Assembly: GCA_964386565.1 (NCBI GenBank)
Contig: CAYLRU010000008.1
Location: forward strand, 8,110 to 72,109
Direction: 5' to 3'
Source: an uncultured Desulfobacteraceae bacterium
Lineage (GTDB): Bacteria; Desulfobacterota; Desulfobacteria; Desulfobacterales; UBA5616
Length of the DNA stretch: 64,000 nt
Shown: positions 8,823 through 24,817 of the stretch, piece after piece
Layout of the letters: each line of letters begins with the position of its first letter
Numbering within the stretch: position 1 is the stretch's first letter
Notes under the pieces: generated by a model
The model's database searches: none
Seen by the model: only the letters and a program-made list of their open reading frames with translations
Told to the model about the DNA's origin: nothing
Program-made: the position numbers and the translations under genes

Positions 8823-10487
8823 CTACATTTTTTCCGGTGATGTAACGCCCAGCAGGGCAAGTCCGTTGCGGATGACCTGTTTAACCGCGGTGACGAGATA
8901 TAAACGGCCCCGGGTTAACACCCTGTCATCCGATAACACACGGTGTTTATTGTAATAGGTATGGAACGCGGATGCAAGGTTTATCAGATAAAACGTAATC
9001 CTGTGGGGCTCCATGAATTCGGCGCTGGTTTTAACCACCTCGGGATATCCGGCCATGGCCCTGATCAGGGCGATTTCCTCGGGGGTGACGAGCCTGGATA
9101 CAGCATCCGCATCATATGGGATTTCATCGAATCCGCGTTCCGCAGCGTTCCTGATAATGCTGGATATCCTGGCATGCACGTACTGTACGTAATATACCGG
9201 GTTGTCGTTGGATTTTTTCTTTGCCAGTTCCAGGTCAAAATCCAGGGGGCTTTCATGATGACGGGTTAAAAAGATAAAACGAGCCGCATCACTGCCCACT
9301 TCGTCAACCACGTCTTTTAATGTAACGAATTCACCTGCCCGGGTGGACATGGCAACAGGCTCGCCTTCCCGCAACAGATTTACCAGTTGAACCAGAATAA
9401 CGTCAAATTTTTCCGTTTCATGTCCTGAAGCGGCGATGCAGGCCCGCATTCGCGGAATATAGCCGTGGTGGTCGGCCCCCCACACATCGATGATTCTGGA
9501 AAATCCCCGATCGAACTTATCCCCATGATAGGCAATATCCGAAGCAAAATACGTGGTGTCTCCATTGCTTCTCACCACAACGCGGTCTTTCTCATCCCCG
9601 AACGCCGTTGTTTTAAACCACCATGCCCCGTCTTTTTCATACACAAGGCCTTTTTGTTTGTAATCCTCGATGGAGCGATCCACCTTGCCGGCATCATATA
9701 AGGCCTGTTCGCTGAACCAATTGTCGTATTCGATGCCGAAGTTTTTTAAATCCTTCCCAATCTCATCGAGGATATGCTTGGCGGCAAACCGTGCACATTC
9801 GTTGACAGCCTCGTTTTCATCCATCTCCAGCAGTTTGTTTCCCCTTGCCGCCTGGATCATCCTTGCGATATCGGTGATATACGCCCCCTGATAACAATCT
9901 TCCGGAAAAGAAATATCAATACCGAACAAGGCCGTGTATCGTAAAAAAACGCTGCGCCCCAGCGTGTTGATCTGACGTCCGGAGTCATTAACATAGTACT
10001 CCCTTTGAACGTCGTATCCGCAGAGTTTCAAAATATTGGCAACCGCATCCCCCACGGCGGCGCCCCGGCCATGCCCCACATGCAAGGGACCCGTCGGGTT
10101 GGCACTGACGAATTCCACCTGCACCCGTTCATTGTTTCCCATATTTACGGCGCCGTATGTTTCATTCTGCACGTGGATGGTTTTCAATACGGGATGCCAT
10201 GCAGACGGTTTGACAAAAAAATTAATAAACCCGGGACCGGCGATCTCCACTTTTTCGAACAGGCCGTCCATATCAACGATTTGGCTGACAATGGCCTCGG
10301 CGATCTTTCTCGGGGCCATCTTTAAAACGGATGCGGACACCATGGCGATATTGGTGGAAAAATCCCCCTGGGTCTCAAATTTGGGCTCTTCGATTTCAAC
10401 GGCCGGAATATCCGGCGAGTTCAACATCTTGTTTTGGTAAGCACTGCGGGCCGCAGCCGTTACCAGTTTTTGTATCGTGTGCTTCAT
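8823..10487 (-). CDS. argS: arginine--tRNA ligase
   Basis: Class I HIGH motif ([12 protein letters not shown]), DALR anticodon-binding C-terminus and the terminal ...PEKM typical of ArgS. ATG 10487 lies 9 nt after GAGGA; the ORF extends to GTG 10517. Confidence 0.96.
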
Positions 10488-10695
10488 CTGCAGTATCCTC
10501 GAAATTAATCGTTTCACTTCATAAAGTGTTTCCCGTTGTTAGTCAAGATACTTGGCTTTCATCCGGCTTACCATCAAAATTAAATGTCGTTAACGCAGCG
10601 CTGTTTTCCCACGACTTCCGTCAAAGAGCCGGTTAGAAACGCAAAAACAGTCCTTCCTGGTGGAGAAGGATAGCGTTAATGACATTGAATTTCAA

Positions 10696-10854
10696 TTGAC
10701 AACACTTAAGATATTGTTTATAAATAAAAACAACTTCAGGCTGAAGCCTGAACCGAATATTCATTGCTGTCATGAAACCCACGCTGCCACGAAGGTAACC
10801 ATATCATGAAGATATGCGGATTTCGTGGTTTTTTTTTTGGAAACGGAGGATCAA
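10696..10854 (+). promoter_or_regulatory. promoter plus ~125-nt structured leader of the Ni/Co ECF transporter operon (candidate attenuator/riboswitch)
   Basis: TTGACA 10696-10701, 17-nt spacer, TATAAA 10719-10724. Hairpin TTCAGGC(10735-41)-tgaa-GCCTGAA(10746-52). Terminator at 10786-10838, then GGAGGA and ATG 10855. Confidence 0.55.
10786..10838 (+). terminator. intrinsic terminator inside the 5' leader, 6 nt upstream of the SD
   Basis: Outer stem CCACGAA(10787-93)/TTCGTGG(10822-28), inner stem CATATC/GATATG, followed by T10 (10829-10838). No plus-strand gene lies upstream for it to terminate. Confidence 0.65.
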
Positions 10855-11634
10855 ATGAAAAAAGGTTTATGTTTCAGTCTATCTTTGGTAGTTTTATCTT
10901 TATTATGCGTCTGTCCGGTCATGGCACACTACGGCATGATCATTGTCTCCGACACCATGGTGATGCAGGAGGACAATCGGACGGTCCACGTGGATCTCTC
11001 GTTTTCCCACCCGTTTGAACTCATCGGTATGGAACTGGAAAAGCCCAAAGTCTTTGGTGTGATGGCCAACGGTAAAAAACAGGATCTGCTGGAAACCCTG
11101 AAGCAAACCAAGGTAATGGATCATACGGCATGGACCGCAAATTATAAAATCAGACGACCGGGCATCTATATGTTTTACATGGAGCCGACCCCCTACTGGG
11201 AGCCGTCCGAGGATTGTTTTATTGTTCATTACACGAAAACCGTTGTGGCCGCCTTCGGGAACGACGAAGGGTGGGATGAACCAGTGGGATTGAAAACGGA
11301 AATCGTACCTGTTTCCAAACCCTTTGGGCTTTATGCGGGAAACGTATTCCAGGGTATGGTTCTGCTGGATGGAAACCCGGTACCCAACGCCGAGGTTGAG
11401 ATTGAATTTTACAACCAGCAGAAAAAATTCCAGGCACCCACGGACTATATGATCACCCAAACCATAAAGGCCGATCCCAACGGCATCTTCACCTATGCCC
11501 CCCCACAAGCAGGCTGGTGGGGATTTGCCGCGTTGAACACTGCTGATGAAAAAATACAACGAGACGGAAAAGACAAGGATGTGGAACTGGGCGCTGTTAT
11601 CTGGGTGAAATTTCACGAATTCAAAATGAAATAG
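10855..11634 (+). CDS. DUF4198-type periplasmic Ni/Co transporter component (NikK-like)
   Basis: ATG after GGAGGA; signal peptide MKKGLCFSLSLVVLSLLCVCPVMA-HYGMI. Size and position directly upstream of cbiM match the NikK/CbiK-type accessory component. Confidence 0.75.
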   Translation: MKKGLCFSLSLVVLSLLCVCPVMAHYGMIIVSDTMVMQEDNRTVHVDLSFSHPFELIGMELEKPKVFGVMANGKKQDLLETLKQTKVMDHTAWTANYKIRRPGIYMFYMEPTPYWEPSEDCFIVHYTKTVVAAFGNDEGWDEPVGLKTEIVPVSKPFGLYAGNVFQGMVLLDGNPVPNAEVEIEFYNQQKKFQAPTDYMITQTIKADPNGIFTYAPPQAGWWGFAALNTADEKIQRDGKDKDVELGAVIWVKFHEFKMK

Positions 11635-11645
11635 GAGACATCTCC

Positions 11646-12251
11646 ATGCATATTTCAGAAGGCGTATTGTCCGGTCCGGTCCTGATCTCCGGTTATGCAC
11701 TGGCAGCTGCCGGAACCGCCGTCGGACTGAAAAAACTGGATTACGAAAAAATCGCCCAGGTCGGTATTCTGGGGGCCTCGTTCTTTGTCGCGTCCCTGAT
11801 TCATGTTCCCATCGGCCCTGCAAACGTCCACCTGATTCTAAACGGTATTGTCGGGATGCTGCTGGGATGGGGGGCCTTCCCCGCCATCCTTGTAGCGTTG
11901 ACCCTTCAGGCTGTTTTGTTTCAATTCGGCGGCATCACCTCCCTTGGCGTCAATACGCTGACCATGGCAGCACCGGCAGTGGTCTGTTTTTACATGTTCG
12001 GATGGATCATCCGGAAAAAACCCGGTCTGGCCGGTATGGCCGCTTTTTTATGCGGGTTTACCGCCGTTTTTATGTCTGCAGTCATCGCCGGTGCCGCCCT
12101 GATGTTCACCGAAGAAAATTTCCTGAAGGTCGCAGCCCTCATTGTGGCGGCCCATCTTCCGGTCATGGTGGTGGAAGGATTGATCACGGCCTTTTGTGTT
12201 GAATTTTTAAGAAAAGTTCGTCCTGAGATACTGGCCATGCATTATTTATAA
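11646..12251 (+). CDS. cbiM: ECF transporter substrate-capture component CbiM/NikM
   Basis: Starts with the family hallmark MHISEGVL (Met1-His2 metal ligand). About 6 TM segments, 201 aa. Confidence 0.9.
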   Translation: MHISEGVLSGPVLISGYALAAAGTAVGLKKLDYEKIAQVGILGASFFVASLIHVPIGPANVHLILNGIVGMLLGWGAFPAILVALTLQAVLFQFGGITSLGVNTLTMAAPAVVCFYMFGWIIRKKPGLAGMAAFLCGFTAVFMSAVIAGAALMFTEENFLKVAALIVAAHLPVMVVEGLITAFCVEFLRKVRPEILAMHYL

Positions 12252-12299
12252 CTTTACCCGGCTTGGGCGTTTTTTGCAAAGAAATATGCCGGAATCCGT

Positions 12300-12983
12300 A
12301 TGTATGCGAAGAAAATCACCCAATCCGACTATACAATCATTGGAGAAAAAACCGTGGAAAACCGACTGTTCGGCAAAATATGCTTGTTATTTTTTGTGAC
12401 GGCATCCTTTTTCTCAATCACCTGCATCACTCCTGCCATGGCCCACAAGGTAACCGTGTTTGCCTGGGTGGAGGGCGACCAGGTGTTTACCGAAAGCAAA
12501 TTAAGCGGTGGAAAACGCGTTGCAGCGGGTGACATCACCGTTTACGATGCCTCCAACAACGTCCTTTTAAAAGGAAAAACCAATGACCAGGGAGAATTTT
12601 CATTTAAACTTCCACAAAAACCGCCCCTGATTATCGAGCTTAACGCCGGTATGGGACACCAGGCCAAATGGACCATTCAGCCGGATGACGTGGATGATGA
12701 TACCTTTCCAGCAGGCAATGATCCGGAAAAGGACATCATTGCCTCCGAACCGGTAAAAACAGCCCCGTCCGTGGACAGATCCGCGGAATTAAATACCGCG
12801 GATCTCGAAGCCGTGGTAGAAAGGGTCCTGGATAAAAAACTCAAACCCGTCATTCGATTGTTGGTGGATACCCGACAAAACGAACCGTCATTATCCGAAA
12901 TCATCGGCGGAATCGGCTATATCATGGGTATCGTGGGCATCATCGCCTATTTCCAAAGCCGGTCGCCGAAGCGGGACAAATAG
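12300..12983 (+). CDS. NikL-like nickel transport accessory protein (signal/TM - beta-sandwich - C-terminal TM)
   Basis: N-terminal hydrophobic segment ICLLFFVTASFFSITCITPAMA-HKV, a transthyretin/CarboxypepD_reg-like block (ITVYDASNNVLLKGKTNDQGEFSF) and a C-terminal TM (IIGGIGYIMGIVGIIAYF). Alternative start GTG 12354 after GGAG. Confidence 0.65.
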   Translation: MYAKKITQSDYTIIGEKTVENRLFGKICLLFFVTASFFSITCITPAMAHKVTVFAWVEGDQVFTESKLSGGKRVAAGDITVYDASNNVLLKGKTNDQGEFSFKLPQKPPLIIELNAGMGHQAKWTIQPDDVDDDTFPAGNDPEKDIIASEPVKTAPSVDRSAELNTADLEAVVERVLDKKLKPVIRLLVDTRQNEPSLSEIIGGIGYIMGIVGIIAYFQSRSPKRDK

Positions 12984-13014
12984 GGAACCGGCCCGAGAAA
13001 ACCGTTCATTAAAC

Positions 13015-13773
13015 ATGATCGAAGAATATTTTACTGAAGCAGGTACCCAGATCCACCGGCTGGATCCGCGGCTTCGAATCGTTTTTGCCACGGCCTACGC
13101 GTTTTCCGTGGCCCCTCTCCATCGATTCGAACCCATGTATGCAGCGGCGGTGTTGTCCCTGTTGATGGTCATCCTGTCCGGAGTGGGTATCGGGACTCTG
13201 GTGAAGCGCATGCTGGCCTTTAACGGTCTTGTTCTTCTGTTCTGGCTGGTGCTGCCCTTCACCTTTTCCGGTGAAGCCCTTTACAGTATCGGCCCGTTTA
13301 CCATCACCCGGCCCGGTGTTATCATGTCTGCAAAGATCACGCTGAAGGCCAACGCCATCATGCCGGCTTTCATTGTCATGATTTCAACGATCCCCGTTTC
13401 AGTCATGGGCCATGCCCTGGAAAAGCTTCATGTGCCGAAAAAAATCGTTCATATTCTTCTGTTGACTTACCGTTACATATTCGTGATAGAACAGGAATAT
13501 CAGCGGCTGAAGCGTGCCATAAAAACAAGGGGGTTTGTTCCCGGGACCAATATGCACACATACAAAACCTATGCATACCTCATCGGCATGATATTTGTCC
13601 GATCCCTGGACCGGGCCCAACGGGTGCATCAGGCCATGATCTGCCGCGGATTTTGCGGAAAATTTTTCTCCCTGAACCGATTTTCCTTGAAAAAAGCAGA
13701 CTATGCTTTTCTGCCGATCATGGCAGCCGCGATTATCGGACTGGAGGTGATGGAATGGATTCCGATCCGGTGA
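13015..13773 (+). CDS. cbiQ: ECF transporter transmembrane (T) component CbiQ
   Basis: 252-aa polytopic protein with the CbiQ/EcfT signature region (YRYIFVIEQEYQRLKRAIKTRGF). Sits between cbiM and cbiO. Confidence 0.88.
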   Translation: MIEEYFTEAGTQIHRLDPRLRIVFATAYAFSVAPLHRFEPMYAAAVLSLLMVILSGVGIGTLVKRMLAFNGLVLLFWLVLPFTFSGEALYSIGPFTITRPGVIMSAKITLKANAIMPAFIVMISTIPVSVMGHALEKLHVPKKIVHILLLTYRYIFVIEQEYQRLKRAIKTRGFVPGTNMHTYKTYAYLIGMIFVRSLDRAQRVHQAMICRGFCGKFFSLNRFSLKKADYAFLPIMAAAIIGLEVMEWIPIR

Positions 13774-14486
13774 TCATCCAACTGGAAAAGGTTAATTTCT
13801 CGTATCCCAACGGCCGGGTTGTACTTAAAGATACCGATTTTTCCCTCCGGACAGGCCAGAAAATCGGATTGATCGGCCACAACGGAAGCGGTAAATCCAC
13901 CTTCTTGCACATCCTGGTCGGGTTATTGAAAATATCCGGCGGTTCCATTCGCTTCTTCAGAGAACCGGTGGTATCTGAAAAAGATTTTCAAAAGGTCAGG
14001 CAGCACATCGGCCTGGTATTTCAGAATTCCGACGACCAGCTTTTCAGCCCAACGGTATTGGAAGACATTGCCTTTGGGTTGTTGAATCAGGGCAAAACAC
14101 CTGAAGAAGCCCGGGAAATATCCAGGAAACTGCTGACCGACCTCGACCTGAAAGATTTTGAAAACCGGGTCACCTACCGGCTGTCCGGCGGCGAAAAGCG
14201 GCTGGTAGCCCTGGCAACGGTTCTCGTCATGGAACCCCGGGTGCTGTTGCTGGATGAACCGTTTACCGGGCTGGACGAATACACCCGGGATCACATCATT
14301 GAAATCCTGAATCATCTGGATATCAGCTATATCATCGTGACCCATGAATACGACTCCCTGGTCCAGACCACCAGTGACATCTGCAGCATGGAGAATGGCA
14401 AAATCATTTATAACGGCGATTCATCCATGCTCCACAGCCATTTTCACCGGCACCCCGGGGGAACCGTCCACCATCATCACCGATAG
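13755..14486 (+). CDS. cbiO: ECF transporter ATPase CbiO with His-rich C-terminal tail
   Basis: ATG 13755 after GGAGGTGATGGA, overlapping the cbiQ end by 19 nt. Walker A GHNGSGKST, signature LSGGEKR, Walker B LLLDEP. Tail: HSHFHRHPGGTVHHHHR. Confidence 0.9.
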   Translation: MDSDPVIIQLEKVNFSYPNGRVVLKDTDFSLRTGQKIGLIGHNGSGKSTFLHILVGLLKISGGSIRFFREPVVSEKDFQKVRQHIGLVFQNSDDQLFSPTVLEDIAFGLLNQGKTPEEAREISRKLLTDLDLKDFENRVTYRLSGGEKRLVALATVLVMEPRVLLLDEPFTGLDEYTRDHIIEILNHLDISYIIVTHEYDSLVQTTSDICSMENGKIIYNGDSSMLHSHFHRHPGGTVHHHHR

Positions 14487-14494
14487 CGACACCG

Positions 14495-15421
14495 ATGACA
14501 GACGATATTCTTATTCAGCATCATTTCCTGTTTCAAAAAGGATTCTTTGAAAGGCACCCTTCCCTTTTTGATATCTATTTCCGCAATACCCCGAGAAAGC
14601 TGTACGACAAATTGGAAAAGACAAAAGCCGCCCTTACCGCCTATGAAGGAACCATTCAATGGCCGGCGATCAGGGGGCCGGGATTTTGCGGGGCCACCCA
14701 TCCCGGGGCCGGAAAAAGTTTTAACGGCTACATGACGGGCTGCTCCCCGTCTTTTTACAACAGCGACTGTCTTTATGTCCATCCGGGTCTGAACATTTTT
14801 GCCGTATCCGACCCCCCCGGGATCACCACAATCTCCCGAAAGCTTTTTGAAAAACTGGATGACCGGTTAAGAAAAACAACCACGGATAGACTTGATACTG
14901 TCATCAATGACCTGGCCGCCGGCATCCAGGAAAACGGGCCCACCCTGGCATTGATTCAATTTCAACAATACGGCATCTCCCGGACGCCAAACCGGGCATT
15001 TGTTTATATCGCCGGTGACACCGAAGTATACCGGGGAAACTTTAAAGGGGAAAAAATCAAACGGATTAACGGCAGCCCGCATTTCTGGGGAACTGCATGC
15101 CATGATTTAAAGCCCCGCGTGTTTGAATTGAACAGCAACGATTTTTTTCTTATCGTCAGTGACGGCATCAGCAGTCTGAGACAGACCGTTCCCGAGCATG
15201 GAATCGAAAAAATCCTTTGGGAACATATCATTCGTGATCCTGAAAAATTTGCCGAAAACGTCACCATGACCTGCAACCGGGTTTTTACCCAAAACAATAA
15301 CGGCAGATCCCGAACCCTGCTCGGCGGAACGGATGACATCACCGCCCTGCTAGTCGTCCCATCGGCGCTTGCCCAAATCCCTGTTGATAAAGGATACATA
15401 CTGGGAGGACACATCGGCTAA
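14495..15421 (+). CDS. PP2C/SpoIIE-family phosphatase-like protein
   Basis: Starts 8 nt after cbiO. Degenerate PP2C motifs FAVSDPPG, FFLIVSDGISS and GGTDDITALLV. Confidence 0.55.
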   Translation: MTDDILIQHHFLFQKGFFERHPSLFDIYFRNTPRKLYDKLEKTKAALTAYEGTIQWPAIRGPGFCGATHPGAGKSFNGYMTGCSPSFYNSDCLYVHPGLNIFAVSDPPGITTISRKLFEKLDDRLRKTTTDRLDTVINDLAAGIQENGPTLALIQFQQYGISRTPNRAFVYIAGDTEVYRGNFKGEKIKRINGSPHFWGTACHDLKPRVFELNSNDFFLIVSDGISSLRQTVPEHGIEKILWEHIIRDPEKFAENVTMTCNRVFTQNNNGRSRTLLGGTDDITALLVVPSALAQIPVDKGYILGGHIG

Positions 15422-15645: not shown

Positions 15646-16518
15646 TCATTGTCCCGGGTTCCAGACGTCCCTGAGGCTGTCCCCCAAAAGATTAAAGGCC
15701 AATACGGAAAGCATGATGGCAATTCCCGGATATACTGAAAGATGGGGTGCGCTTAAAATATAGTCTTTCCCTTCCATGAGCAACGTACCCCATTCCGGAT
15801 AGGGTGGCTGGACACCGAATCCCAAAAACCCAAGGGCCGATACGGCAATAATTGCCTTTGCCAGTCCGATGGTGGCAAGAACGATGACCGATCCGATGTT
15901 TGCCGGCAAGATATGGCGAAAAACAATAACAATTCTTGATACCCCTGAAAACTGCGCGACTTTTACATAATCCCGTTCCTTAACAGAAAGGGTAATCCCT
16001 CTGACAAGTCTGGCGTAACGCATCCAGCCGGTAATGGAAAGGGCAAAAATCAGATTAAATGTGCCCGGTCCCATTAGCCCTGCCAGTGTCATGGCAGCAA
16101 CTATCTCAGGAAGGGAAAGAAAAATATCGGCAATTCTCATGAGCAATTCATCCATGAGACCGCCCTGGTAGCCGGCAACCAACCCAACCATTACTCCCAA
16201 AAGGCAGGAAACCATCACCACAGAAACTCCCAGCCCTATGGACATGCGCGCACCAGACAAAATACGTGAAAAAAGACACCGGCCCAAGGCATCATTGCCC
16301 AGAGGATATTGCAGGCAAGGAGAAGCTAATCTTAAAGACAAATCTGTCTTCAGGGGATCATGGGGGGATAGCGCAGGCCCCAAGGCAGCTATAAAAAACA
16401 CCACGACTGCGATTACGGCCGCGCCTGAAATCAGGGGGTTTTTAATTACGGAGCGGTAAAATCTGCCCTGGATTTTTTCATATCCGGCATGCTCCCGCGA
16501 AAAATCATGAGCACTCAT
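15646..16518 (-). CDS. Opp/Dpp/Nik-type ABC transporter permease (DppC/NikC-like)
   Basis: 290-aa polytopic protein with the BPD_transp_1 EAA-type region. Overlaps the upstream permease by 4 nt. Confidence 0.9.
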   Translation of the reverse strand: MSAHDFSREHAGYEKIQGRFYRSVIKNPLISGAAVIAVVVFFIAALGPALSPHDPLKTDLSLRLASPCLQYPLGNDALGRCLFSRILSGARMSIGLGVSVVMVSCLLGVMVGLVAGYQGGLMDELLMRIADIFLSLPEIVAAMTLAGLMGPGTFNLIFALSITGWMRYARLVRGITLSVKERDYVKVAQFSGVSRIVIVFRHILPANIGSVIVLATIGLAKAIIAVSALGFLGFGVQPPYPEWGTLLMEGKDYILSAPHLSVYPGIAIMLSVLAFNLLGDSLRDVWNPGQ

Positions 16519-17453
16519 AATGGTCGAATCCGTGGATCCAGATATTGGTAGACAATATCCACAAAAAAATTAATCAGGACAAAAATCATAGCGGTAAAAA
16601 ACACCAGACCTTGTATCAAAGGATAATCCCTGTTGCTGACCGCATTGACCATCAGTTCCCCCAGCCCCGGCCATGCGAAAATGGTTTCCGTTATCACTGC
16701 TCCCTCAAGAATCATTCCCAATTCCAGCCCCACCACGGTAACTACAGGTATCATTGCATTTTTCAATATGTGACCTCCGAGCACGAGGCGGCTACTGACG
16801 CCTCTGGCGCGAAGGGCCAACAGGTATTCAGACTGCAAGGTTTCTGCGACGGCGGAACGCAAAATTCGTGTCGTATAGGCCGTCAGTGCGGTTCCCAGTG
16901 TTATGGCGGGCAAAACCAGATGCTGCCAATCCCCACGGCCAAAGCTTGGAAGCCAATGAAGTTTCACACAAAAAACAACAATGAGCACCAGCCCAAGCCA
17001 GTAATTGGGCATGGAAATACCGGTTACGGCAACCGCAACTCCGATTGAATCAAGCCATGTGCCTTGCCTGACGCCTGAAAGAATACCGATTGGCACGGAT
17101 ATGATCAGTGCAAGGAAAATGGCGGTTATGGCAAGATCAAAGGTACGGCTGAATCGAATGCTGATGAGTTCCCAAACAGGTACTTCCTCCACCAGTGATA
17201 TGCCAAAGTCAAGACGGACGACATGCTTCAACCAATGGAAATATTGCTGATAAAAAGGCTTGTCCAATCCTTCTTCCTGAATGATCCATTCAATGGTGGC
17301 CTGATCTACTAAACCTGGTTCTCCATAGCGGGCAATGGCTATCTCCAGGGGGGCGTCACCCGGTGCAAGCAGCATCATGGCGTAGGTAAAAAAAGTTGCG
17401 CCAATGAGGACAAAAATTGCGGTAACTATGCGCTTTGATATGAATCGTACCAT
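16515..17453 (-). CDS. Opp/Dpp/Nik-type ABC transporter permease (DppB/NikB-like)
   Basis: 312 aa with the typical DppB N-terminus (IVTAIFVLIGATFFTYAMMLLAPGDP) and C-terminus (IVYQYLDPRIR). Confidence 0.9.
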   Translation of the reverse strand: MVRFISKRIVTAIFVLIGATFFTYAMMLLAPGDAPLEIAIARYGEPGLVDQATIEWIIQEEGLDKPFYQQYFHWLKHVVRLDFGISLVEEVPVWELISIRFSRTFDLAITAIFLALIISVPIGILSGVRQGTWLDSIGVAVAVTGISMPNYWLGLVLIVVFCVKLHWLPSFGRGDWQHLVLPAITLGTALTAYTTRILRSAVAETLQSEYLLALRARGVSSRLVLGGHILKNAMIPVVTVVGLELGMILEGAVITETIFAWPGLGELMVNAVSNRDYPLIQGLVFFTAMIFVLINFFVDIVYQYLDPRIRPL

Positions 17454-17477
17454 TCAAACATTTTTCTATAACTGACG

Positions 17478-19277
17478 TTAATCTAAATGACAAAAAATCT
17501 CATGTTCGCACGTGATATTTCTTTTTAACGGCGCGATTTTTTCGCATACCGAGAGCCGTCGGGGGCATCTTGAGTGAAATATACAGCCGGATGGCGGGTC
17601 ATAAGGAGACGGAATCTCCCCTTCAAGAACGATCCGTTTATCCTGCCATAGGCCGGGTTTTAGTGCATTTGACAAAAGGGCCTGTGAATATGGATGGCGA
17701 GCGGAGGAAAAAAAGATTTCCACCGGGGCCTTTTCAACGATTCTTCCCAGATACATTACAGCCACGGTTGTGCCGATGTCTTTGACAAGGCCGAGGTCGT
17801 GGGTAATGAGAAAACAGGTCAGGCCATGCCGCCTTTTCAGCCTGTAAAGCAGCTTCGCCATGTCTTTTTGGTTCACAGCATCCAGAGCGCTCAGGGGTTC
17901 GTCGAGAAATAAAAGATCGGGGCCGGTTGAAAGGGCACGGGCGATACATGCTCTTTGATTCTGACCCACCGATACTCTCCCGGGTGGTTGCTGAAGCAAA
18001 GAGTATGAAAGCCCCACTTCCGCTGCCAATCTTTTGACAATCTTTTCCCTCTCTTTCTTCTTAACACCCCTGGCATGTAACGGCTCCATAATAGACTGTC
18101 CCAAGGAAAGATAGGGGCTTAAAGAAGCAACCGGATCCTGGAAGACCACCTGGGACTTGGATTTCATCCTTTGATGGACCGGATCGCCGGGCCGCCTGAC
18201 GGGTTGACCATCGAAAATCATCTCACCTTCCTGATACGGACAGAATCCTAGCATGGCGTTTATCAGGGTTGTCTTTCCGGAACCGCTTTCACCTATCAGG
18301 CAAAAGATCTCTTCACGGCGGACATCCAGACTGATATTCCTTACGGCATAAAATGAACGATGGGAAAAGAGCGTTTCGGCCCTAAGCGTGAATTGAACGG
18401 AAAAGTTGCGGATGGAAATGGCGGAAGCTGTCTCCGGTTTTTCATACCTGTTCCCGACTTGTTCAGACATACCTGAAACAAGCCGCCGGGTATATGGATG
18501 TGACGGTCGGAAAACTATTTCACGCGCTGCCCCGTTTTCCACGATATGGCCCTTGTGCATCACCGCTACCCGGTCACATACCTCCAGGGCAACTGAGAGG
18601 TCGTGGGTGATAAAGATGATTCCGGTGCCATAACGTTTTTTTAAAAGGGCGATTAACTGGATGATCTGCACGGTAATCGTAGGATCAAGGGCCGATGTAA
18701 CTTCATCCAGTATCACGACTTCCGGCCTGGTGGAAAATGCCATTTGTAACTGGGCACGTTGCAGCATCCCCCGGCTCCATTGATGGGGATACTGCCGACA
18801 CCGTTCTTCCGGTGAAGCAATGCCAACCGTTTGGAGAAGGTCATTTATTTTTTGATTTTCCCTTTCCTGTTTTCTCCATCTACGCTTTTTTAAGCCGGAG
18901 CGAACCGACAGAACATCTTTGAATTGGTTACCCACTGTAAAGACCGGGTCCATCGCGCTTTTGGGATTTTGCAGCACCAGGGATATCTTACGTCCCCTGA
19001 AATACTGCATCTTTTGCTGACTTTGCGTGGTGAGCTCTTGACCACCCAGAACAATGGAACCGGAAACAATTTTTCCCGGGTATTCCAGCCGTACAAGGGT
19101 CCTGGCAAAAACGCTTTTCCCGCAACCGGATTCCCCCACAAGGCCGAGAATTTCACCCCGGTTAAGCGAGAGACATAGACCATCGAGAACCCTTGGACCG
19201 GTCGCCCTGCCTGGTAAATCGACAACCAGGTTTTTCACCTTAAGAATTGGATTCGCTGCTGTCGCGCGTTGATACAT
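17478..19277 (-). CDS. fused double ATPase of Opp/Dpp/Nik-type ABC transporter (DppD-DppF fusion)
   Basis: 599 aa with two nucleotide-binding domains: Walker A GESGCGKS and GESGSGKT, two signature/Walker B sets (ILDEVTSALD, LFLDEPLSALD). Confidence 0.9.
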   Translation of the reverse strand: MYQRATAANPILKVKNLVVDLPGRATGPRVLDGLCLSLNRGEILGLVGESGCGKSVFARTLVRLEYPGKIVSGSIVLGGQELTTQSQQKMQYFRGRKISLVLQNPKSAMDPVFTVGNQFKDVLSVRSGLKKRRWRKQERENQKINDLLQTVGIASPEERCRQYPHQWSRGMLQRAQLQMAFSTRPEVVILDEVTSALDPTITVQIIQLIALLKKRYGTGIIFITHDLSVALEVCDRVAVMHKGHIVENGAAREIVFRPSHPYTRRLVSGMSEQVGNRYEKPETASAISIRNFSVQFTLRAETLFSHRSFYAVRNISLDVRREEIFCLIGESGSGKTTLINAMLGFCPYQEGEMIFDGQPVRRPGDPVHQRMKSKSQVVFQDPVASLSPYLSLGQSIMEPLHARGVKKKEREKIVKRLAAEVGLSYSLLQQPPGRVSVGQNQRACIARALSTGPDLLFLDEPLSALDAVNQKDMAKLLYRLKRRHGLTCFLITHDLGLVKDIGTTVAVMYLGRIVEKAPVEIFFSSARHPYSQALLSNALKPGLWQDKRIVLEGEIPSPYDPPSGCIFHSRCPRRLSVCEKIAPLKRNITCEHEIFCHLD

Positions 19278-19317
19278 TTTTCAGCACCTGCCGTTTTTGC
19301 ACCGGGTGGTTGAGAAT

Positions 19318-20904
19318 TCATTTTCGATAGATCTCGGGGGTCAGAAGGAATTTCTCCGCCGGATGAATCCGGTAGTTTTGCACATAATTATAGGCGACGG
19401 ATACCATTGATTTGTAAAACAGCACAATCACAGGACTGTCGTCATAGATAATTTCCTGAATCCGGTCATAAATTATTTTGCGCTTTTTAGGGTCAAAAGT
19501 GACTTTTCCTTTTCTCGCCAATTCGTCCAGTTCCGAGTTGTGGTATCCCATACAGTTTGACCCGGCCTGGCCGGTAAAAACATTGGAGATGAAAAAATCA
19601 GGGTCACCTTCAGGAGCAACGTTCCACATCTGCAAATTTAAATGAACCTCGCCTTTTCTCATGGCCCTGCTGATAGGTGATCCCCTTTGGGTAATTTTCA
19701 GCTTTGTAATGATGCCCACCCTATGCAATTGTGCCTGTATCAATTCAAGGACCGGTTTTAACGATGCACGTCCTTCATAGGTCCACATATTCAGTAACAA
19801 CGGCCGGCCGGCCATTTCCAATATCCCGTCTCCGTCACTGTCTTTGGCGCCGGCCTCAGCCAAAAGCTTTAATGCTTTGTCAGGGTCATAAGGATACGGT
19901 TTCAGGTTACGGTTACCCCAGGGAATGGTTCCAGGAAAAACTGACGCGCCGACTTGTCCCCCCACGCCGCCAAGAACCGTATCAACAATCTCCTGTCGAT
20001 TGATGGCATGGTTGATGGCCTTTCGGACACGGGAATCGGCAAGAGGGCCGTCTGCAATCCTTACAAAAAAAAAGCAAAGCCGATTGGTGGGTTCGTGATA
20101 GATTCGGACGTCTTTTCGCGATGCCATGCGCTTTACATCATTTTCAGGAAAATTTGTCACCACATCCAATTGTCCGGCTTCAAACGCCAGCATCCGCGTT
20201 GAAGGGTTCCTGATGATTTTCAGATGAACTTTTGCAAGCTTTGCCCTGCCCCCCCAATAACCGTCAAATCGGGACACAATCATCTCTTCCTTTGGAATCA
20301 CCTTGTCCAATACAAACGGGCCGGTGCCGTAAATTCTTTCTTTACTGCTCCCGGGGCTGACAATCCCTGTCCCAGGTGATGTTAAATAATATAAAAACGC
20401 AGCATTGGGCTTATGGGTTTCAAATACCAGGATATCGTTATCCTTAACGGTGATGTTTTTGATATCCAGCATTTTCTGTATCCGTATATTGAACACCTCG
20501 CTTTTTTTATCAATAATACGGTCAATGGACCATTTAACGGCTCTGGCGTTTAAGGGTGTATTGTCATGAAACCGGATCCCATTTTTTAATTTGATCTCCC
20601 AGATTAAAGGACTGAGGTTTTTGGATGCAGCCACGAGCCAGGGCCTTAAATTCATTTCAAAGTCAAGCACAAAGAGCGTTTCGGTCACTCCGGCCTCGTT
20701 GGTGTACCAACCGTTGGCCCCTTTGGCCGGATCAGGACATTTTACGGATGGGCCAAAAGGTTTGGCAATGATCAGTTTGTCCGGTCCGGCTGCAAAAACA
20801 CCGGTAGCAAATAATTCCAGTGAAAACAGAAGGATCAGTATAACAGCCAGACCAATCTCCCTATCTTCTTGCATGCGCAATAAAGAATGCCGGTTTTTTT
20901 TCAT
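19318..20904 (-). CDS. family 5 (DppA/NikA-type) ABC substrate-binding protein
   Basis: SBP_bac_5-like sequence across about 500 aa. Signal peptide after MKKNRHSLLRMQEDRE-IGLAVILILLFSLELFATGVFA. The start is ambiguous (20904, 20874, or up to 21051); every option overlaps the methyltransferase 3' end. Confidence 0.85.
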   Translation of the reverse strand: MKKNRHSLLRMQEDREIGLAVILILLFSLELFATGVFAAGPDKLIIAKPFGPSVKCPDPAKGANGWYTNEAGVTETLFVLDFEMNLRPWLVAASKNLSPLIWEIKLKNGIRFHDNTPLNARAVKWSIDRIIDKKSEVFNIRIQKMLDIKNITVKDNDILVFETHKPNAAFLYYLTSPGTGIVSPGSSKERIYGTGPFVLDKVIPKEEMIVSRFDGYWGGRAKLAKVHLKIIRNPSTRMLAFEAGQLDVVTNFPENDVKRMASRKDVRIYHEPTNRLCFFFVRIADGPLADSRVRKAINHAINRQEIVDTVLGGVGGQVGASVFPGTIPWGNRNLKPYPYDPDKALKLLAEAGAKDSDGDGILEMAGRPLLLNMWTYEGRASLKPVLELIQAQLHRVGIITKLKITQRGSPISRAMRKGEVHLNLQMWNVAPEGDPDFFISNVFTGQAGSNCMGYHNSELDELARKGKVTFDPKKRKIIYDRIQEIIYDDSPVIVLFYKSMVSVAYNYVQNYRIHPAEKFLLTPEIYRK

Positions 20905-21601
20905 TCTGTTTTTTGCCCCCATAAGGATTAAAGCCAACGCGAGATGTATCATAAGATCGAATCTCTTTAAAACGGGCAGCATGCAAAAGCATGCTGGCCT
21001 TTTCAAAGCAAATGCCTTCATAAAATGGAAGCGACTTTTGCAGACCGGCATAGCTTCGGAAAAAACGAAGGAAAATCATACTGCGGTTCCGGCGCATCCC
21101 TTTGAGCAATTTGAAAGCCAAATGATGAATACGCTTCCAAGTGGTATTCATCCATAACCCGTCGGATACTATCAAGATGCCTTCTGGTTTCAAAATCCGC
21201 CGCCATTCTTCAAGTGCTTTATCGGGATGCGGAAGCGTCCACAACAAATTCCGGGAAACCACCACATCAAAAGTGCTGTCACCGAACGCAAGCGCCTCGG
21301 CGTCTCCGATCTGAAAATCGATATCAAGCCCTTGATTTGCTGCATATTGCCCGGCAATGAAAAGCATGTTTTCGGCCAGATCGATACCCGTCACGTTGAA
21401 ACCGGCACGGGCGAGATATACGGCAAACTGTCCGGTCCCGGTTCCGATATCCAGCGCGCGCCTTCCGGGAGCCCCTGGAGCCAGTTCTTTTAAAATGGAT
21501 TCCCAGTTCTTGGCTATTGCAATCGACTTGTCCGTATCATGGCCGTAACTTCTGCTTCTCCAGTTCCAGTAATTTTTAATCGAAGCTTTTACCCTGTCCA
21601 T
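20861..21601 (-). CDS. class I SAM-dependent methyltransferase
   Basis: SAM-binding motif I ALDIGTGTGQFAVYLARAGFNVTGIDLAENML, then the acidic post-I and motif II region (GDAEALAFGDSTFDVVVS). Confidence 0.85.
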   Translation of the reverse strand: MDRVKASIKNYWNWRSRSYGHDTDKSIAIAKNWESILKELAPGAPGRRALDIGTGTGQFAVYLARAGFNVTGIDLAENMLFIAGQYAANQGLDIDFQIGDAEALAFGDSTFDVVVSRNLLWTLPHPDKALEEWRRILKPEGILIVSDGLWMNTTWKRIHHLAFKLLKGMRRNRSMIFLRFFRSYAGLQKSLPFYEGICFEKASMLLHAARFKEIRSYDTSRVGFNPYGGKKQNEKKPAFFIAHARR

Positions 21602-21704
21602 ATAGATCCTCTCAAAAAGCTAACCGATGCAGTTACCACCGGCAGATGCATTCCGCCCATAGAGGCTGCATCGGTAATGTCAAATCCGGGTCACACCATG
21701 GTCT

Positions 21705-24020
21705 TTAGTAGCAAACGCTCACCGTACCGAGCCAAAATCGGCCGGGGGCACGGTAGTATTCATAGTATTTTTCATCAAAAAGATTGTCCACGGAAAGGGA
21801 GAGTGCGATATGGTCCATCGGCCTGGCAGTTATCTTGGCGTCTACAATATGGTATTCGTCATCTGCTCTGTATGTTGTGTCCGCATATTGGGCATATTCA
21901 TCATCGTATCTGCTGTCACAATATCTATAGCTGATGCTCGCATCCAGGTAACGGCCGAAATAGCCAAGCCAGAGGCTCCACATGTCCGTGGGCGTCTCAT
22001 TCACTTCCCATCCCAGCTTGGAAGAAACTTGCGTTTTCGTATATTCGGACCAGTTATGCGCATAAAACAGACCGGCCTTCATATTGTGGGGCAGAAGGGC
22101 TTCAATCGAGGCCTCGATACCGTTTACCTCGGCCTCTTCGGCATTGACCCGCTTTTTCTCTGTTACCTGGGTTCCGTCCGCAAGGGTATAAGTTGTTGTT
22201 TGATTTACGATCAGGTCCTTAAAATCATTTTCAAAATAGGTTGCCTTGACCCGGATGCGCTTTTCCCAGAATTCCCATTCCGTACCGATCTCCCAGGATT
22301 TATTGGTCGTGGGGCCAAGGTCGGGATTCGGATCGGCCATGGAAATGGTTCCGCCGCCTTCCCAATAGTAGCTTGCGGTTCTGTAATACAGGGAAGGTGC
22401 GGTAAATGCTTCGCCATACGACGCCCGAACTGTACCGTTCTCAAATGGACGATACACCAACGACACTTTGGGGCTGAACTTTCCGTCATCCGTGTCCGGG
22501 TATTCGATATTACTTCCGTCAATATTGGAATAGTCTGCATCAGTACCCCACCAATGGTCGTAGCGGCCGCCCAGATAGGCAGTCAAATGGTCTGCAGGTG
22601 AATACTCCACCTGGATGAATGTTCCCAGCGTACGGTTTTTGCCTGAAGTCTCTTCCCTGACGGATACAGTGCTGTCTTTGTCGTAAGGATCGGAAAGGTT
22701 ATTGTCCGTGACCGTGGCCTCTTCCTGAACGCCTTGAATTCCCACCGTAACCAGGCATTTGTCGTTCAAATAATGAAATGTGGCTGCCAGATCGGCCTGG
22801 GCAAGGTAATTGTCTTCCACCTTATACCGGCTGTTGCTGATATTATGGGTCGCACTTTCCTTATCGTTGAAAGCGAGAAGACCAACGATATCTACCGAGT
22901 CGGGTATTGAGTGATTGAAACGCAGGGTGTGGACCATGGATTCTTTTGTTTTCGGGTTCGAAGTAAAATTAAACGGGCTCAATGTTGTTGTGTATGTGTT
23001 TCCCCCATCCTGAATATAGACATCGCCTTCATAGAGGGTTGTTCCGGATGAATTCTTCAGAAAGCTCTTCCCGTCCTTCCAACCGTATTCGAATTCGCTG
23101 ATATTGAGGCTGTACCATAACCGGGTATTGGGGGCGAAGTCATAACCTGTTTTAAAAAACAGGCCGTGGTCTTCATACCAGTTGTCGCCCTGATGACCGA
23201 TCTTGTAGCGATCATTTCCGGTTTGCGGATCAACATCCTTTTCCCAGCCTGTTACTATCGGGATATTGGGATCAAGCACACCTGTAACGGGGGTGTTCAG
23301 GCTTTTGTAAGAAGGAGTCGTGACATAGCCGTCCGAACTACGCGATTTGAAACTGAACGAGTAAAAAAAACGGTCGCCAAGGATGGTGGGGTCAAACCAG
23401 AAACTCCGTTTCCTGCCACCATTTTTCTTTCCAAAAGGTCGATCGGCAAATCTGAAACTGTAAAAATGGCTGTTCCAGTTGCCGTAAGAAGCCGAGGCAT
23501 CTATCTCCGCATCTTCCGGTATTTTTGTTGTATAATTAATAACGCCGGTCTGGGCCAACGTTCCGTATAGCGCGGAAAACGGCCCTCTGACCACGTCAAT
23601 TCTTTCCACATCCGGCATCGGTATGGCACCGGTATGCGAATAGTAGCCGTAATCGTACCAATTGACCCCGTCAACCTGAACAAGGGCTCTTTGGCTGCGG
23701 ATAACAGGCCGGGCCCAATAGTCCGCCAGCCCCCGGTACTGCCTTGGCCAGATCCCTTCCGTCAGGACAAGCGGTTTAAAGGGGTGCTCGGAATTAAAGG
23801 CCTTTATTTCATCTTCCGTAATGACGGAAACGCTTGCCGGAGCATCTATCGGCGCTTTTGGTGTTCTTGTTGCCATAACCGTTATGGGTTCAAGTTGGTA
23901 CGGTTCGGCATCATGTCTGACCGTCGACTGGTGGCCGGCGTCTTCTGTCTCAGCCCACACCGGTTGACAAATAAAAAAGATCATTGCCGCTGCAAAACAC
24001 AATATCGATTTCAACTTCAT
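21705..24020 (-). CDS. TonB-dependent outer-membrane receptor
   Basis: ATG 24020 after GGAGGAGG; signal peptide MKLKSILCFAAAMIFFICQPVWA. Plug-domain motifs (EPITVMATR, VVRGPFSALYG), a long beta-barrel and an aromatic C-terminus. Confidence 0.92.
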   Translation of the reverse strand: MKLKSILCFAAAMIFFICQPVWAETEDAGHQSTVRHDAEPYQLEPITVMATRTPKAPIDAPASVSVITEDEIKAFNSEHPFKPLVLTEGIWPRQYRGLADYWARPVIRSQRALVQVDGVNWYDYGYYSHTGAIPMPDVERIDVVRGPFSALYGTLAQTGVINYTTKIPEDAEIDASASYGNWNSHFYSFRFADRPFGKKNGGRKRSFWFDPTILGDRFFYSFSFKSRSSDGYVTTPSYKSLNTPVTGVLDPNIPIVTGWEKDVDPQTGNDRYKIGHQGDNWYEDHGLFFKTGYDFAPNTRLWYSLNISEFEYGWKDGKSFLKNSSGTTLYEGDVYIQDGGNTYTTTLSPFNFTSNPKTKESMVHTLRFNHSIPDSVDIVGLLAFNDKESATHNISNSRYKVEDNYLAQADLAATFHYLNDKCLVTVGIQGVQEEATVTDNNLSDPYDKDSTVSVREETSGKNRTLGTFIQVEYSPADHLTAYLGGRYDHWWGTDADYSNIDGSNIEYPDTDDGKFSPKVSLVYRPFENGTVRASYGEAFTAPSLYYRTASYYWEGGGTISMADPNPDLGPTTNKSWEIGTEWEFWEKRIRVKATYFENDFKDLIVNQTTTYTLADGTQVTEKKRVNAEEAEVNGIEASIEALLPHNMKAGLFYAHNWSEYTKTQVSSKLGWEVNETPTDMWSLWLGYFGRYLDASISYRYCDSRYDDEYAQYADTTYRADDEYHIVDAKITARPMDHIALSLSVDNLFDEKYYEYYRAPGRFWLGTVSVCY

Positions 24021-24228
24021 TTCAAATCCTCCTCCAAATAAAAAAGCCACGAAGTCGCTCTCCTTTCCGGGAGCACAGACCTTCGTGGCCTTTTGTTCAG
24101 GCTCTTTATATTGTTTCCGCCGATATACGGCGACATGACTTTTGGCTTTGCCCTGAAATTAAACCGTTTGCGACTTCTGCCGCAGATTAAGAAAGAATTT
24201 TTTTACTTGATATTTTCCGGGAAGTCAA
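24021..24228 (-). promoter_or_regulatory. promoter plus ~170-nt structured leader of the TonB-receptor/ABC operon (candidate attenuator/riboswitch, related to 10696-10854)
   Basis: Read on the minus strand: TTGACT (24228-24223), 17-nt spacer, TAAAAA (24205-24200). TTCAGGGC (24157-24150) can pair with GCCTGAA (24102-24096). Internal hairpin CGCCG-tatat-CGGCG (24132-24118). Terminator at 24089-24036, then GGAGGAGG (24035-24028) and ATG 24020. Confidence 0.55.
24036..24089 (-). terminator. intrinsic terminator inside the 5' leader, abutting the SD
   Basis: 5' arm GCCACGAAGGTC and 3' arm GACTTCGTGGC (one bulged G), with an inner GCTCC/GGAG(A)GC stem, followed by TTTTTTATTT and then directly GGAGGAGG. 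Confidence 0.65.
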
Positions 24229-24817
24229 GATTTTTCGCCAATTATTGTTGTTAGCACGTCGAGTATCCGGTATTCTTGACATGAAGCCATCTCAAAAAAA
24301 AACGAGGTAGTATTACAGCGCAACCAAGTTGAACCATATCGAGGAGATTCTCTGCATGGTATTCGTATCGAACAACCCATCGCCTGAAGTTTTGCAGCCA
24401 GGCGCAGAGGGCATCCTCCGGGATTTTTTTGAGACAGGTTCTAAACTGCGGGGACGTGACCGTTATGGGCAGGGGACCTGGGAAGTATTGTCCCACTACC
24501 TGAAATCCGGTGTTTCATATGATGACACGTTTCCTGGCGGTGTGATCGTGGTTCAGACCTTTGGTCGGTTTATGGAAAACCCGGAACCAGGATTCCCGAA
24601 AATTGTGCCTTATCTGATTGATTTTTTAATTTTTTGCACTTATAGTAATCAAAGAACTTGTTTTTCCCCCTGGCGTTCTTGGCATCTTGAGTGAGCGTAG
24701 CGAACGGGCGATGTGTTTTTGGGTTAAACCGTTAAGGCGCAAAGCGCCAAGAGACTTTGAATGATTTTTTTCCCTTCTGGACTCCGGTTTCTGGTATTTT
24801 GTTTTTTTTTTCTCTTT

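Follow-up and report, generated by a model that had tools for sequence, protein, structure and literature searches.

In pyr attenuation, PyrR, a nucleotide-binding alpha/beta protein that is often encoded with its targets, binds leader hairpins and picks either the terminator or the alternative structure. The NiCo (czcD) riboswitch is a four-way junction with metal sites rich in purine N7 and turns exporters ON at high metal, and guanidine-II RNAs have two hairpins with ACGR tetraloops, the loops kissing through C-G pairs. In the leaders targeted by ANTAR proteins, the hairpin that overlaps the terminator is too weak without a bound dimeric protein, and the factor-bound state is the one that reads through; the targets are defined by hexanucleotide loops with A at position 1 and G at position 4 and by a linker of 5-12 nucleotides (nt) (PMC3369931). 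Here we describe a leader found in a 64,000-nt stretch of DNA from an uncultured Desulfobacteraceae bacterium (contig CAYLRU010000008.1; the whole stretch is referred to as the window), where it lies at 10696-10854 on the + strand, in front of a nickel/cobalt importer operon of the energy-coupling factor (ECF) type. A second copy stands before a TonB-receptor operon on the - strand. The leader is a member of a widespread leader-RNA family that is absent from Rfam 15 and from the literature searched. The family appears to control operons of nickel acquisition and use through premature transcription termination, attenuation being well supported by the anatomy together with the comparative data. 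We think it quite probable that the leader is the RNA half of an unrecognised nickel-sensing system that replaces NikR in many anaerobes, and that would be either the first metal-responsive protein-RNA antitermination system, with DUF3842 and CooT reading GAA loops in the RNA, or the first class of nickel-import riboswitch.

For the region in front of the ECF operon, the preliminary description had set out a promoter, a hairpin, a strong terminator and then the Shine-Dalgarno (SD) sequence and ATG, and this layout at 10696-10854 was borne out by direct reading of the sequence and by folding. The leader is composed of the following parts:

10696-10701 and 10719-10724, + strand: sigma70-type promoter, TTGACA and TATAAA separated by a 17-nt spacer (direct reading)
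10735-10752, + strand: hairpin 1 (HP1), the 5'-terminal hairpin UUCAGGC-UGAA-GCCUGAA, with a perfect stem of 7 bp, a closing C-G pair and a loop ending in GAA (fold)
10753-10785, + strand: variable linker
10787-10795, + strand: CCACGAAGG, extended to 10786-10796 by a G and a U on its flanks; can serve as the terminator's 5' arm or fold on its own as the mini-hairpin HP2
10786-10796, + strand: HP2 of the ECF leader, (G)CC-ACGAA-GG(U), predicted fold of -3.1 kcal/mol
10800-10816, + strand: HP3, the apical terminator hairpin CAUAUC-AUGAA-GAUAUG, with a C-ANGAA-G loop (reading and fold)
10821-10828, + strand: 3' arm of the terminator, UUUCGUGG (also given as TTTCGTGG), followed by U10 at 10829-10838
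10845-10850, + strand: SD sequence GGAGGA, six nt past U10, with the ATG of the first transporter gene at 10855 (reading; frame checked)

The terminator hairpin of this leader was predicted by folding to have an energy of -17.3 kcal/mol. In both leaders of the window, a stable hairpin containing G+C is immediately followed by a U-tract (U10 here and U6 in the second copy), as in intrinsic terminators. A consensus promoter scanner did not flag the promoter of the ECF leader, the -10 element of which ends in A, and a consensus terminator scanner did not flag the compound terminator, the loop of which is longer than 8 nt; the promoter rests on direct reading and the terminator on direct reading and folding.

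The second leader, in front of the TonB-receptor operon, is built as follows:

24228-24223 and 24205-24200, - strand: promoter, TTGACT and TAAAAA separated by a 17-nt spacer (direct reading)
24184-24169, - strand: HP1, UGCGGC-AGAA-GUCGCA (folds; the same type of hairpin occurs in related TonB-type leaders)
24091-24168, - strand: insert of the TonB type, a UUCAGG/CCUGAA helix (24157-24152 with 24101-24096) enclosing the hairpin CGCCG-UAUAU-CGGCG (fold)
24040-24090, - strand: terminator, consisting of GG-CCACGAAGG (24088-24080), an inner hairpin, CUUCGUGGC (24054-24046) and U6 (24045-24040)

The predicted energy of this terminator was -23.7 kcal/mol, and that of the HP2 hairpin, which here reads GGCC-ACGAA-GGUC, was -4.7 kcal/mol. 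It had been claimed that the two leaders are collinear and that one leader type serves two metal importers. Both claims agree with our data: the TonB leader (24228-24020, - strand) has in common with the ECF leader the 11-mer GCCACGAAGGT, then CTTCGTGG (also given as CUUCGUGG), a T-run and the SD sequence, and the element stands in front of both the ECF and the TonB operon. In the genome the 11-mer is found at five sites, two in these leaders and three in coding-like regions without leader context. The TTCAGGC...GCCTGAAC helix, listed previously among the shared blocks, is not a homologous block; the counterpart of the 5' hairpin in the TonB leader is UGCGGC-AGAA-GUCGCA. Between HP1 and the terminator, leaders of TonB-receptor or BtuF-like operons carry an insert with a recurring CCAAG..., a GC-rich hairpin and ...UUACAUA, and inserts related to that of the TonB leader, although loosely conserved, were seen at six loci (L027, L028, L029, L066, L136 and L163). 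The insert of the TonB leader gave no Rfam match. This extra domain might be a second sensing module.

No riboswitch class had been recognised in the ECF leader from its letters, and the database searches led to the same result. With cmscan, the whole window was compared with Rfam 15 at gathering scores, without a match, and both leaders were compared at expectation values (E) up to 10 with permissive filters, which gave chance-level matches to unrelated families. The cobalamin riboswitch (RF00174 and relatives) was matched neither in the whole window at the gathering score nor in either leader at E up to 10. The same scans gave no match to the Moco/Wco model and none to the NiCo/czcD model (the genes downstream are importers, not exporters), and the mini-ykkC (guanidine-II) model had no match in the leaders. 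Searches of the full-text literature for a nickel-uptake riboswitch or leader, for RNA motifs associated with DUF4198 or DUF3842, and for the sequence CCACGAAGG returned no description of the element.

The leaders were then aligned, and a covariance model was used to look for the element in relatives, as the preliminary description had proposed; the element was indeed found upstream of orthologous operons in many genomes. When both leaders were compared by BLAST with 60 relatives, the terminator part of about 55 nt was conserved far beyond the genus (E down to 1e-15). A covariance model of this part, R1, scored the window copies at 64.8 and 59.1 bits, the latter being the TonB leader. In the window's own genome R1 detected three copies, namely the two leaders of the window and a third copy at the end of contig 27. 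In the order sample R1 matched 102 of 151 genomes, some of them as many as seven times, and in the phylum sample it matched 33 of 151. Among named genomes, a pattern scan detected the element in Desulfobacterales, Desulfobaccales, Syntrophobacteraceae and Nitrospirota/Thermodesulfovibrio and, among the Clostridia, in Peptococcaceae, Oscillospiraceae, Ruminococcaceae, Anaerosolibacter carboniphilus and a Clostridium isolate. We define the family by three features: an HP1 at the 5' end whose loop is of the C-(N)NGAA-G type, the CCACGAAGG...YUCGUGG terminator, and a gene for nickel or for transport downstream. Both window copies show all three, the genes behind them being nik-type operons. Desulfoluna butyratoxydans is a further named, cultivable carrier.

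The anatomy of the element was examined in 171 collected instances, and the statistics of the stems in 102 aligned members. HP1, with its GAA loop, was present upstream in 121/171 members on the sense strand, compared with 22/171 on the antisense strand and 14.6% of shuffles. Among the 64 loop trinucleotides tried, GAA ranked first by a wide margin, the runner-up AAA scoring 54. The HP1 loops are 4-5 nt long and mostly closed by C-G; AGAA (32), UGAA (25), AAGAA (19) and AUGAA (17) are found besides others. Their stems, of 4-12 bp, use every pair type at every position, and it is therefore the structure that is conserved rather than the sequence. TTGAC lies upstream of HP1 in 97 of the 121 members that have this hairpin, and in 75 of these 97 HP1 starts 38-45 nt after it, which places HP1 at the 5' end of the transcript. 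The linker that follows varies from 25 to 192 nt (median about 50), and its sequence is not conserved.

The terminator behaves differently from these stems. CCACGAAGG and GUGG were invariant in 29/29 aligned sequences, and CCACGAAGG was unchanged in 100/102, the other two carrying one substitution each. The outer stem is 97.9% paired in the 102 members and its six core pairs are essentially invariant, while the flanking pair covaries (GC 50, AU 31, GU 21, none unpaired). The stem never drifts, which implies that its sequence is read and not its pairing alone. CCACGAAGG can also fold on itself, as CC-ACGAA-GG plus flanking pairs, to form HP2, the loop of which is of the same type as that of HP1. 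When nascent transcripts were cut just before the 3' arm, HP2 was the predicted state in 85/121. Its flanking pair is GC in 42 members, GU in 29, AU in 26 and other in 5, and the covariation of 0.293, compared with 0.175 after shuffling, was reached in 0/500 shuffles; slid controls were much lower. In 66/171 instances, compared with 3.3% of shuffles, the terminator is capped by a third hairpin, HP3, whose loop is again of the C-(N)NGAA-G type. Some leaders carry extra internal copies of the (C)CACGAAGG unit (L087, 321-367; L158; L185) and one has two complete elements in tandem (L150, ~220-400), which suggests cooperative or multi-site recognition.

It had further been proposed that four strands of the leader swap partners, TTCAGGC/GCCTGAA against GCCACGAA/TTCGTGG. 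This arrangement is not conserved, as the HP1 stems differ freely between members, and direct reading of the window copy gave at best 3+3 bp with an internal loop. The sole conserved alternative to the terminator is HP2, the small local hairpin of CCACGAAGG.

The genes downstream of the element on the same strand were typed with Pfam and NCBIfam. At least one listed transport or nickel family was found behind 114 of 141 instances, and many of the remainder lie at contig ends. The importer families are DUF4198, CbiM/NikM, NikL, CbiQ and ATPases, and the outer membrane is represented by TonB-dependent receptors, ExbB/ExbD/TonB and channels of the OprB, LbtU and MetA types. ATP-binding cassette (ABC) importers of the NikA type and the BtuF type belong to the regulon, and the families typed include SBP_bac_5 binding proteins accompanied by Dpp-type permeases as well as Peripla_BP_2 accompanied by FecCD. 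Further families are Methyltransf_11, TrmO_N, FmdE with a zinc ribbon, a secreted TP_methylase, and the pair DUF3842 and CooT. There was no exporter among the typed genes. In Oscillospiraceae and Ruminococcaceae the element precedes LarE-LarB-LarC, the genes for synthesis of the nickel-pincer cofactor. In an Oscillospiraceae metagenome-assembled genome (MAG; L137, 1459-7406), a single operon behind the motif holds larE-larB-larC together with a Nik-type permease and binding protein, with LarE, LarB and LarC all above the NCBIfam equivalog cut-offs, and in a Ruminococcaceae MAG (L112) larE-larB-larC follow the motif up to the end of the locus. Importers of the CbiM type transport either Ni or Co; nickel is made the likely metal of the regulon by the Lar genes, CooT and NikL. 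We also noticed that in Desulfobaccales (L124:6338-7297; L120; L091) the motif stands before a TP_methylase-family protein with an apparent signal peptide, which is odd for such an enzyme.

The distribution of NikR was compared with that of the motif. Control by NikR had not been seen at this locus, and NikR (PF08753) was not found in the window's genome (G000, 96.8% complete). In the order sample only 3/151 genomes have NikR, and all three are without the motif. In the phylum sample NikR is present in 71/151 genomes, namely in 6/33 with the motif and 65/118 without it (odds ratio 0.18, p = 1.6e-4). Because of the relatedness among these genomes, Fisher p-values overstate the support, here as well as for the co-occurrence with DUF3842 and CooT given below. 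Even so, genomes with NikR seldom have the motif, as would be expected if the element took over the function of NikR. DUF3842 is also seldom found together with NikR (8/58 genomes with DUF3842, 63/93 others in the phylum sample), and the weak motif matches in NikR-positive genomes are among the copies adjoining DUF3842(-CooT).

DUF3842 (~140 amino acids (aa)) and CooT (~62 aa, starting with MCEANAY) are encoded by two small genes that recur beside the motif. They form an adjacent pair, DUF3842 then CooT, in nearly every genome checked (the loci with the pair include L031, L111, L113, L145, L156 and L200-L216), and in at least five loci their frames overlap by 4 nt. DUF3842 has no assigned function, and its identity is 55-75% across the order and about 55% in Nitrospirota. 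CooT is a nickel-binding dimer, with one Ni per dimer and a Kd of 9 nM, the cellular role of which is unsettled (PMC6006190). In the phylum sample, DUF3842 was present in 33/33 motif genomes and in 25/118 others (p = 8e-18), and CooT in 33/33 and 57/118, respectively. In the order sample the motif genomes visibly lacking DUF3842 are G013, G043, G044 and G046 (60-95% complete); 11 DUF3842-negative genomes were not itemised, hence no exact co-occurrence count is given. Four of the five motif-bearing Clostridia have DUF3842, which in two motif-bearing Clostridia stands alone. In more than 25 genomes DUF3842(-CooT) adjoins a motif copy, being encoded next to it on the upstream side, divergently from it, or right downstream. 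The window's genome has the pair on contig 27 (26145-26751; L221:2140-2761), directly after parB and with no motif in front. This position, unlinked to the presumed targets, is what is expected of a constitutively made regulator.

The conserved anatomy suggests that some factor or ligand recognises the GAA loops. HP2 is weak (-3 to -5 kcal/mol) compared with the terminator (-17 to -24 kcal/mol), and it therefore needs a stabiliser. HP2 would prevail only when something keeps it in place; binding should therefore give read-through, which for importers corresponds to nickel shortage. An apo-protein fits this logic well, and Ni2+ acting as the ligand itself fits it poorly. We thus favour protein-assisted antitermination at low nickel over a direct riboswitch, giving it about an even chance of being the true mechanism. 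A trans-acting factor would recognise the GAA loops of HP1 and HP2 during RNA synthesis, and its binding would lock HP2, so that no terminator forms and transcription proceeds into the importer genes. With ample nickel, the factor would be released, the 3' arm would displace HP2, and transcription would stop at the U-tract. The best candidate for the factor is the DUF3842 protein, and CooT, usually encoded with it, may supply the nickel signal. The repeated GAA loops, together with the co-occurrence and adjacency of DUF3842 and CooT, favour a protein-dependent mechanism at least as strongly as a ligand-sensing RNA. The leader had been presented as a candidate OFF switch. This fits the expected physiology, with less importer when nickel is plentiful, while the conserved anatomy looks like antitermination, in which the factor-bound state is ON.

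The alternative that survives best is a direct riboswitch, which we consider possible but rather unlikely. The RNA itself would sense Ni2+/Co2+, or a small molecule reporting nickel status, and DUF3842 and CooT would be regulated cargo. Its binding site would arise from loop-loop docking of the purine-rich GAA loops in HP1, HP2 and HP3; either docking would lock HP2 (ligand = ON), or metal at purine N7 would break the docking and allow the terminator to form (ligand = OFF). Several observations weigh against protein-assisted antitermination, and most of them speak for such an RNA. The same nucleotides are conserved across three phyla, in Desulfobacterota, Nitrospirota and Clostridia, which is typical of riboswitches. 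The predicted fold of DUF3842 (predicted local distance difference test score, pLDDT, 93) is generic, Rossmann/flavodoxin-like, with a glycine-rich DGQGGGIG loop, and the protein lacks conserved Cys or His residues as well as any recognisable RNA-binding domain. In four of the five motif-bearing Clostridia no CooT was found, although in one of these a contig break directly follows DUF3842, and neither protein was seen in one gut MAG that carries a good motif copy. In addition, 25 genomes with DUF3842 are motif-free under strict filters, and the co-occurrence would also be expected if DUF3842 and CooT were core cargo of a nickel riboswitch regulon. At least one of these 25, G186, has a copy right behind DUF3842-CooT when the filters are off. 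CooT as an obligatory factor is weakened by its absence from the genes detected in those four Clostridia. Searches with the DUF3842 model (Foldseek against the PDB, VIA-align) returned only generic Rossmann/flavodoxin-like folds, with template-modelling (TM) scores below 0.5 and Z up to 9.2 and no functional lead, and a feature search of the ESM Atlas gave no usable match.

Metal-ion riboswitches can be small, and two alike hairpins joined by a very variable linker recall the guanidine-II layout. However, the conserved core of the element is very small even so, comprising loops of 4-5 nt and a 9-mer, with no conserved junction or pseudoknot. The sole conserved alternative to the terminator is a hairpin of 3-5 bp, and a ligand stabilising it would turn the importers ON, the reverse of what nickel itself should do. 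A riboswitch requires neither the extra copies of the unit nor the 33/33 co-occurrence with DUF3842. DUF3842 could also make or remove a small-molecule ligand, which would be another source of the strict co-occurrence.

It is improbable that the leader senses nothing. In that case HP1 would be a 5' stabiliser, the terminator would either act as a leaky, constitutive attenuator or mark where a trans-acting small RNA (sRNA) ends, and nickel control would be exerted elsewhere, for example at the promoter. A 5' hairpin and a terminator with a long U tail are the usual layout of Hfq-type sRNAs, but with a plain terminator or stabiliser one would not expect CCACGAAGG and the GAA loops to stay invariant from phylum to phylum as the stems change. 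The element moreover always lies 6-100 nt upstream of nickel or transport genes on the same strand, and few NikR-carrying genomes have it. Even less credible is a DNA operator, in which CCACGAA...TTCGTGG would be bound by a dimeric transcription factor. Both arms are indeed an invariant inverted repeat in the DNA, but their spacing, unlike that of an operator, differs among members and covers about 21 to 55 nt (a pattern allowing 15-45 nt was used in the search). The repeat is also situated 60-200 nt past the promoter, with a U-tract behind it, and the strand specificity of the GAA-loop hairpin that accompanies it (121 sense, 22 antisense) is sensible only in RNA. The least probable of all is a divergent member of a known riboswitch class (cobalamin, NiCo/czcD or Moco): genes for CbiM, TonB receptors and BtuF-like proteins are often under cobalamin riboswitches, but cmscan gave chance-level matches to unrelated families alone, and the element is about 55 nt of hairpins with no B12 box. 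A T-box-like reading, with GAA as the Glu codon and UGGY as partner of the acceptor end, was dropped, as there is neither T-box architecture nor a link to amino-acid genes, and the sequence rules of K-turns, boxB and iron-responsive-element-like loops, which were also considered, did not fit.

The operons behind the two leaders contain the following genes and open reading frames (ORFs), assigned by Pfam:

10855-11634, + strand: DUF4198/NikK-like
11646-12251, + strand: CbiM/NikM
12300-12983, + strand: NikL
13015-13773, + strand: CbiQ
13653-14486, + strand: ABC ATPase ORF
14495-15421, + strand: ORF of 308 aa
24035-24027, - strand: SD sequence of the second regulated operon (15646-24035)
24020-21705, - strand: TonB-dependent receptor
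21601-20861, - strand: Methyltransf_11
21051-19318, - strand: SBP_bac_5/NikA-like ORF
19277-17478, - strand: double ABC ATPase
17453-16515 and 16518-15646, - strand: permeases

Judged by its genes, the operon at 10855-15421 is a Ni/Co ECF importer of the nikK-M-L-Q-O type. NikL scored 174 bits (NCBIfam cut-off 100) and CbiM 281 bits with NF004905 (cut-off 173); the 308-aa ORF at the end of the operon had no Pfam or NCBIfam family. Upstream, argS (8823-10517, - strand) is divergent from the leader, just as previously described. The same divergent position of argS relative to an ECF-type leader was seen in 8 related loci (L007, L012 and others), a conserved synteny with no sign of common regulation. 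In the second operon, the best NCBIfam match of the binding protein is the nickel NikA type, below the cut-off. With its start at 21051, the longest ORF of this protein shares about 190 nt with the methyltransferase gene (20861-21601), and the true start probably lies downstream of this position. Just upstream of the promoter of the TonB leader there is an ORF of 81 aa (24251-24496, - strand) with a weak, sub-threshold match to the C-terminus of IS5-family transposases, which is probably a transposase remnant. Divergent from the TonB operon lies a gene for a 537-aa protein of the Prismane/CO-dehydrogenase family, hybrid-cluster-protein-like (24961-26574, + strand; E = 6e-173).

Sulfate reducers, syntrophs, Nitrospirota and many Clostridia need nickel for hydrogenases, CO dehydrogenase/acetyl-CoA synthase and the nickel-pincer cofactor. 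For such anaerobes the account of how nickel uptake is regulated has had a gap, only 3/151 genomes of the order having NikR, and a conserved leader in front of their nickel importers, occurring mostly where NikR was not found, is a concrete candidate answer. The element is also a marker for the annotation of nickel regulons, including DUF4198, NikL, FmdE-like proteins, methyltransferases and porins of the LbtU type. For DUF3842 it suggests a function, and for CooT a part in regulation; the job of CooT as a "chaperone" of CO dehydrogenase has, to our knowledge, never been settled. If the RNA alone senses the signal, this would be a new riboswitch class for metal import, and if proteins work with the RNA, a new family of RNA-binding attenuation regulators; under either mechanism it is probably a new system of nickel control.

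Compared with the systems described above, the leader family belongs to none of the known families tested here. It is like NikR in its physiological job and in the kinds of its targets (nik, cbiM-type and TonB-dependent nickel uptake), and the leader and NikR seldom reside in one genome; NikR is, however, a DNA-binding ribbon-helix-helix protein acting at promoters, whereas control here would take place in a transcribed leader. With the NiCo riboswitch it has in common the presumed control of Ni/Co homeostasis genes at the RNA level and, should the RNA itself bind metal, sites rich in purine N7, but there is no match in sequence or structure and the genes are importers. The look-alike mini-hairpins, the variable linker and an HP2 loop beginning with ACGA recall guanidine-II; its membership was rejected, as the HP1 loops are mostly AGAA, UGAA or ANGAA, the Rfam mini-ykkC model did not match and control here is transcriptional. 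The likeness to PyrR lies in a candidate protein with an alpha/beta fold, often encoded beside its presumed targets, and in leader hairpins that would decide on termination; PyrR, on the other hand, promotes termination through an anti-antiterminator and at another RNA site, and RNA binding by DUF3842 is a proposal only. The ANTAR leaders (targets of EutV, NasR and AmiR) are alike in their logic of two hairpins with alike terminal loops, one of which overlaps the 5' arm of the terminator, and HP2, which uses this arm, is mutually exclusive with the intrinsic terminator, as in ANTAR targets. The loops of 4-5 nt ending in GAA and the linker of 25-192 nt nevertheless place the element outside the ANTAR family, no ANTAR protein is implicated, and the regulon is that of nickel uptake, whereas ANTAR leaders serve nitrogen metabolism.

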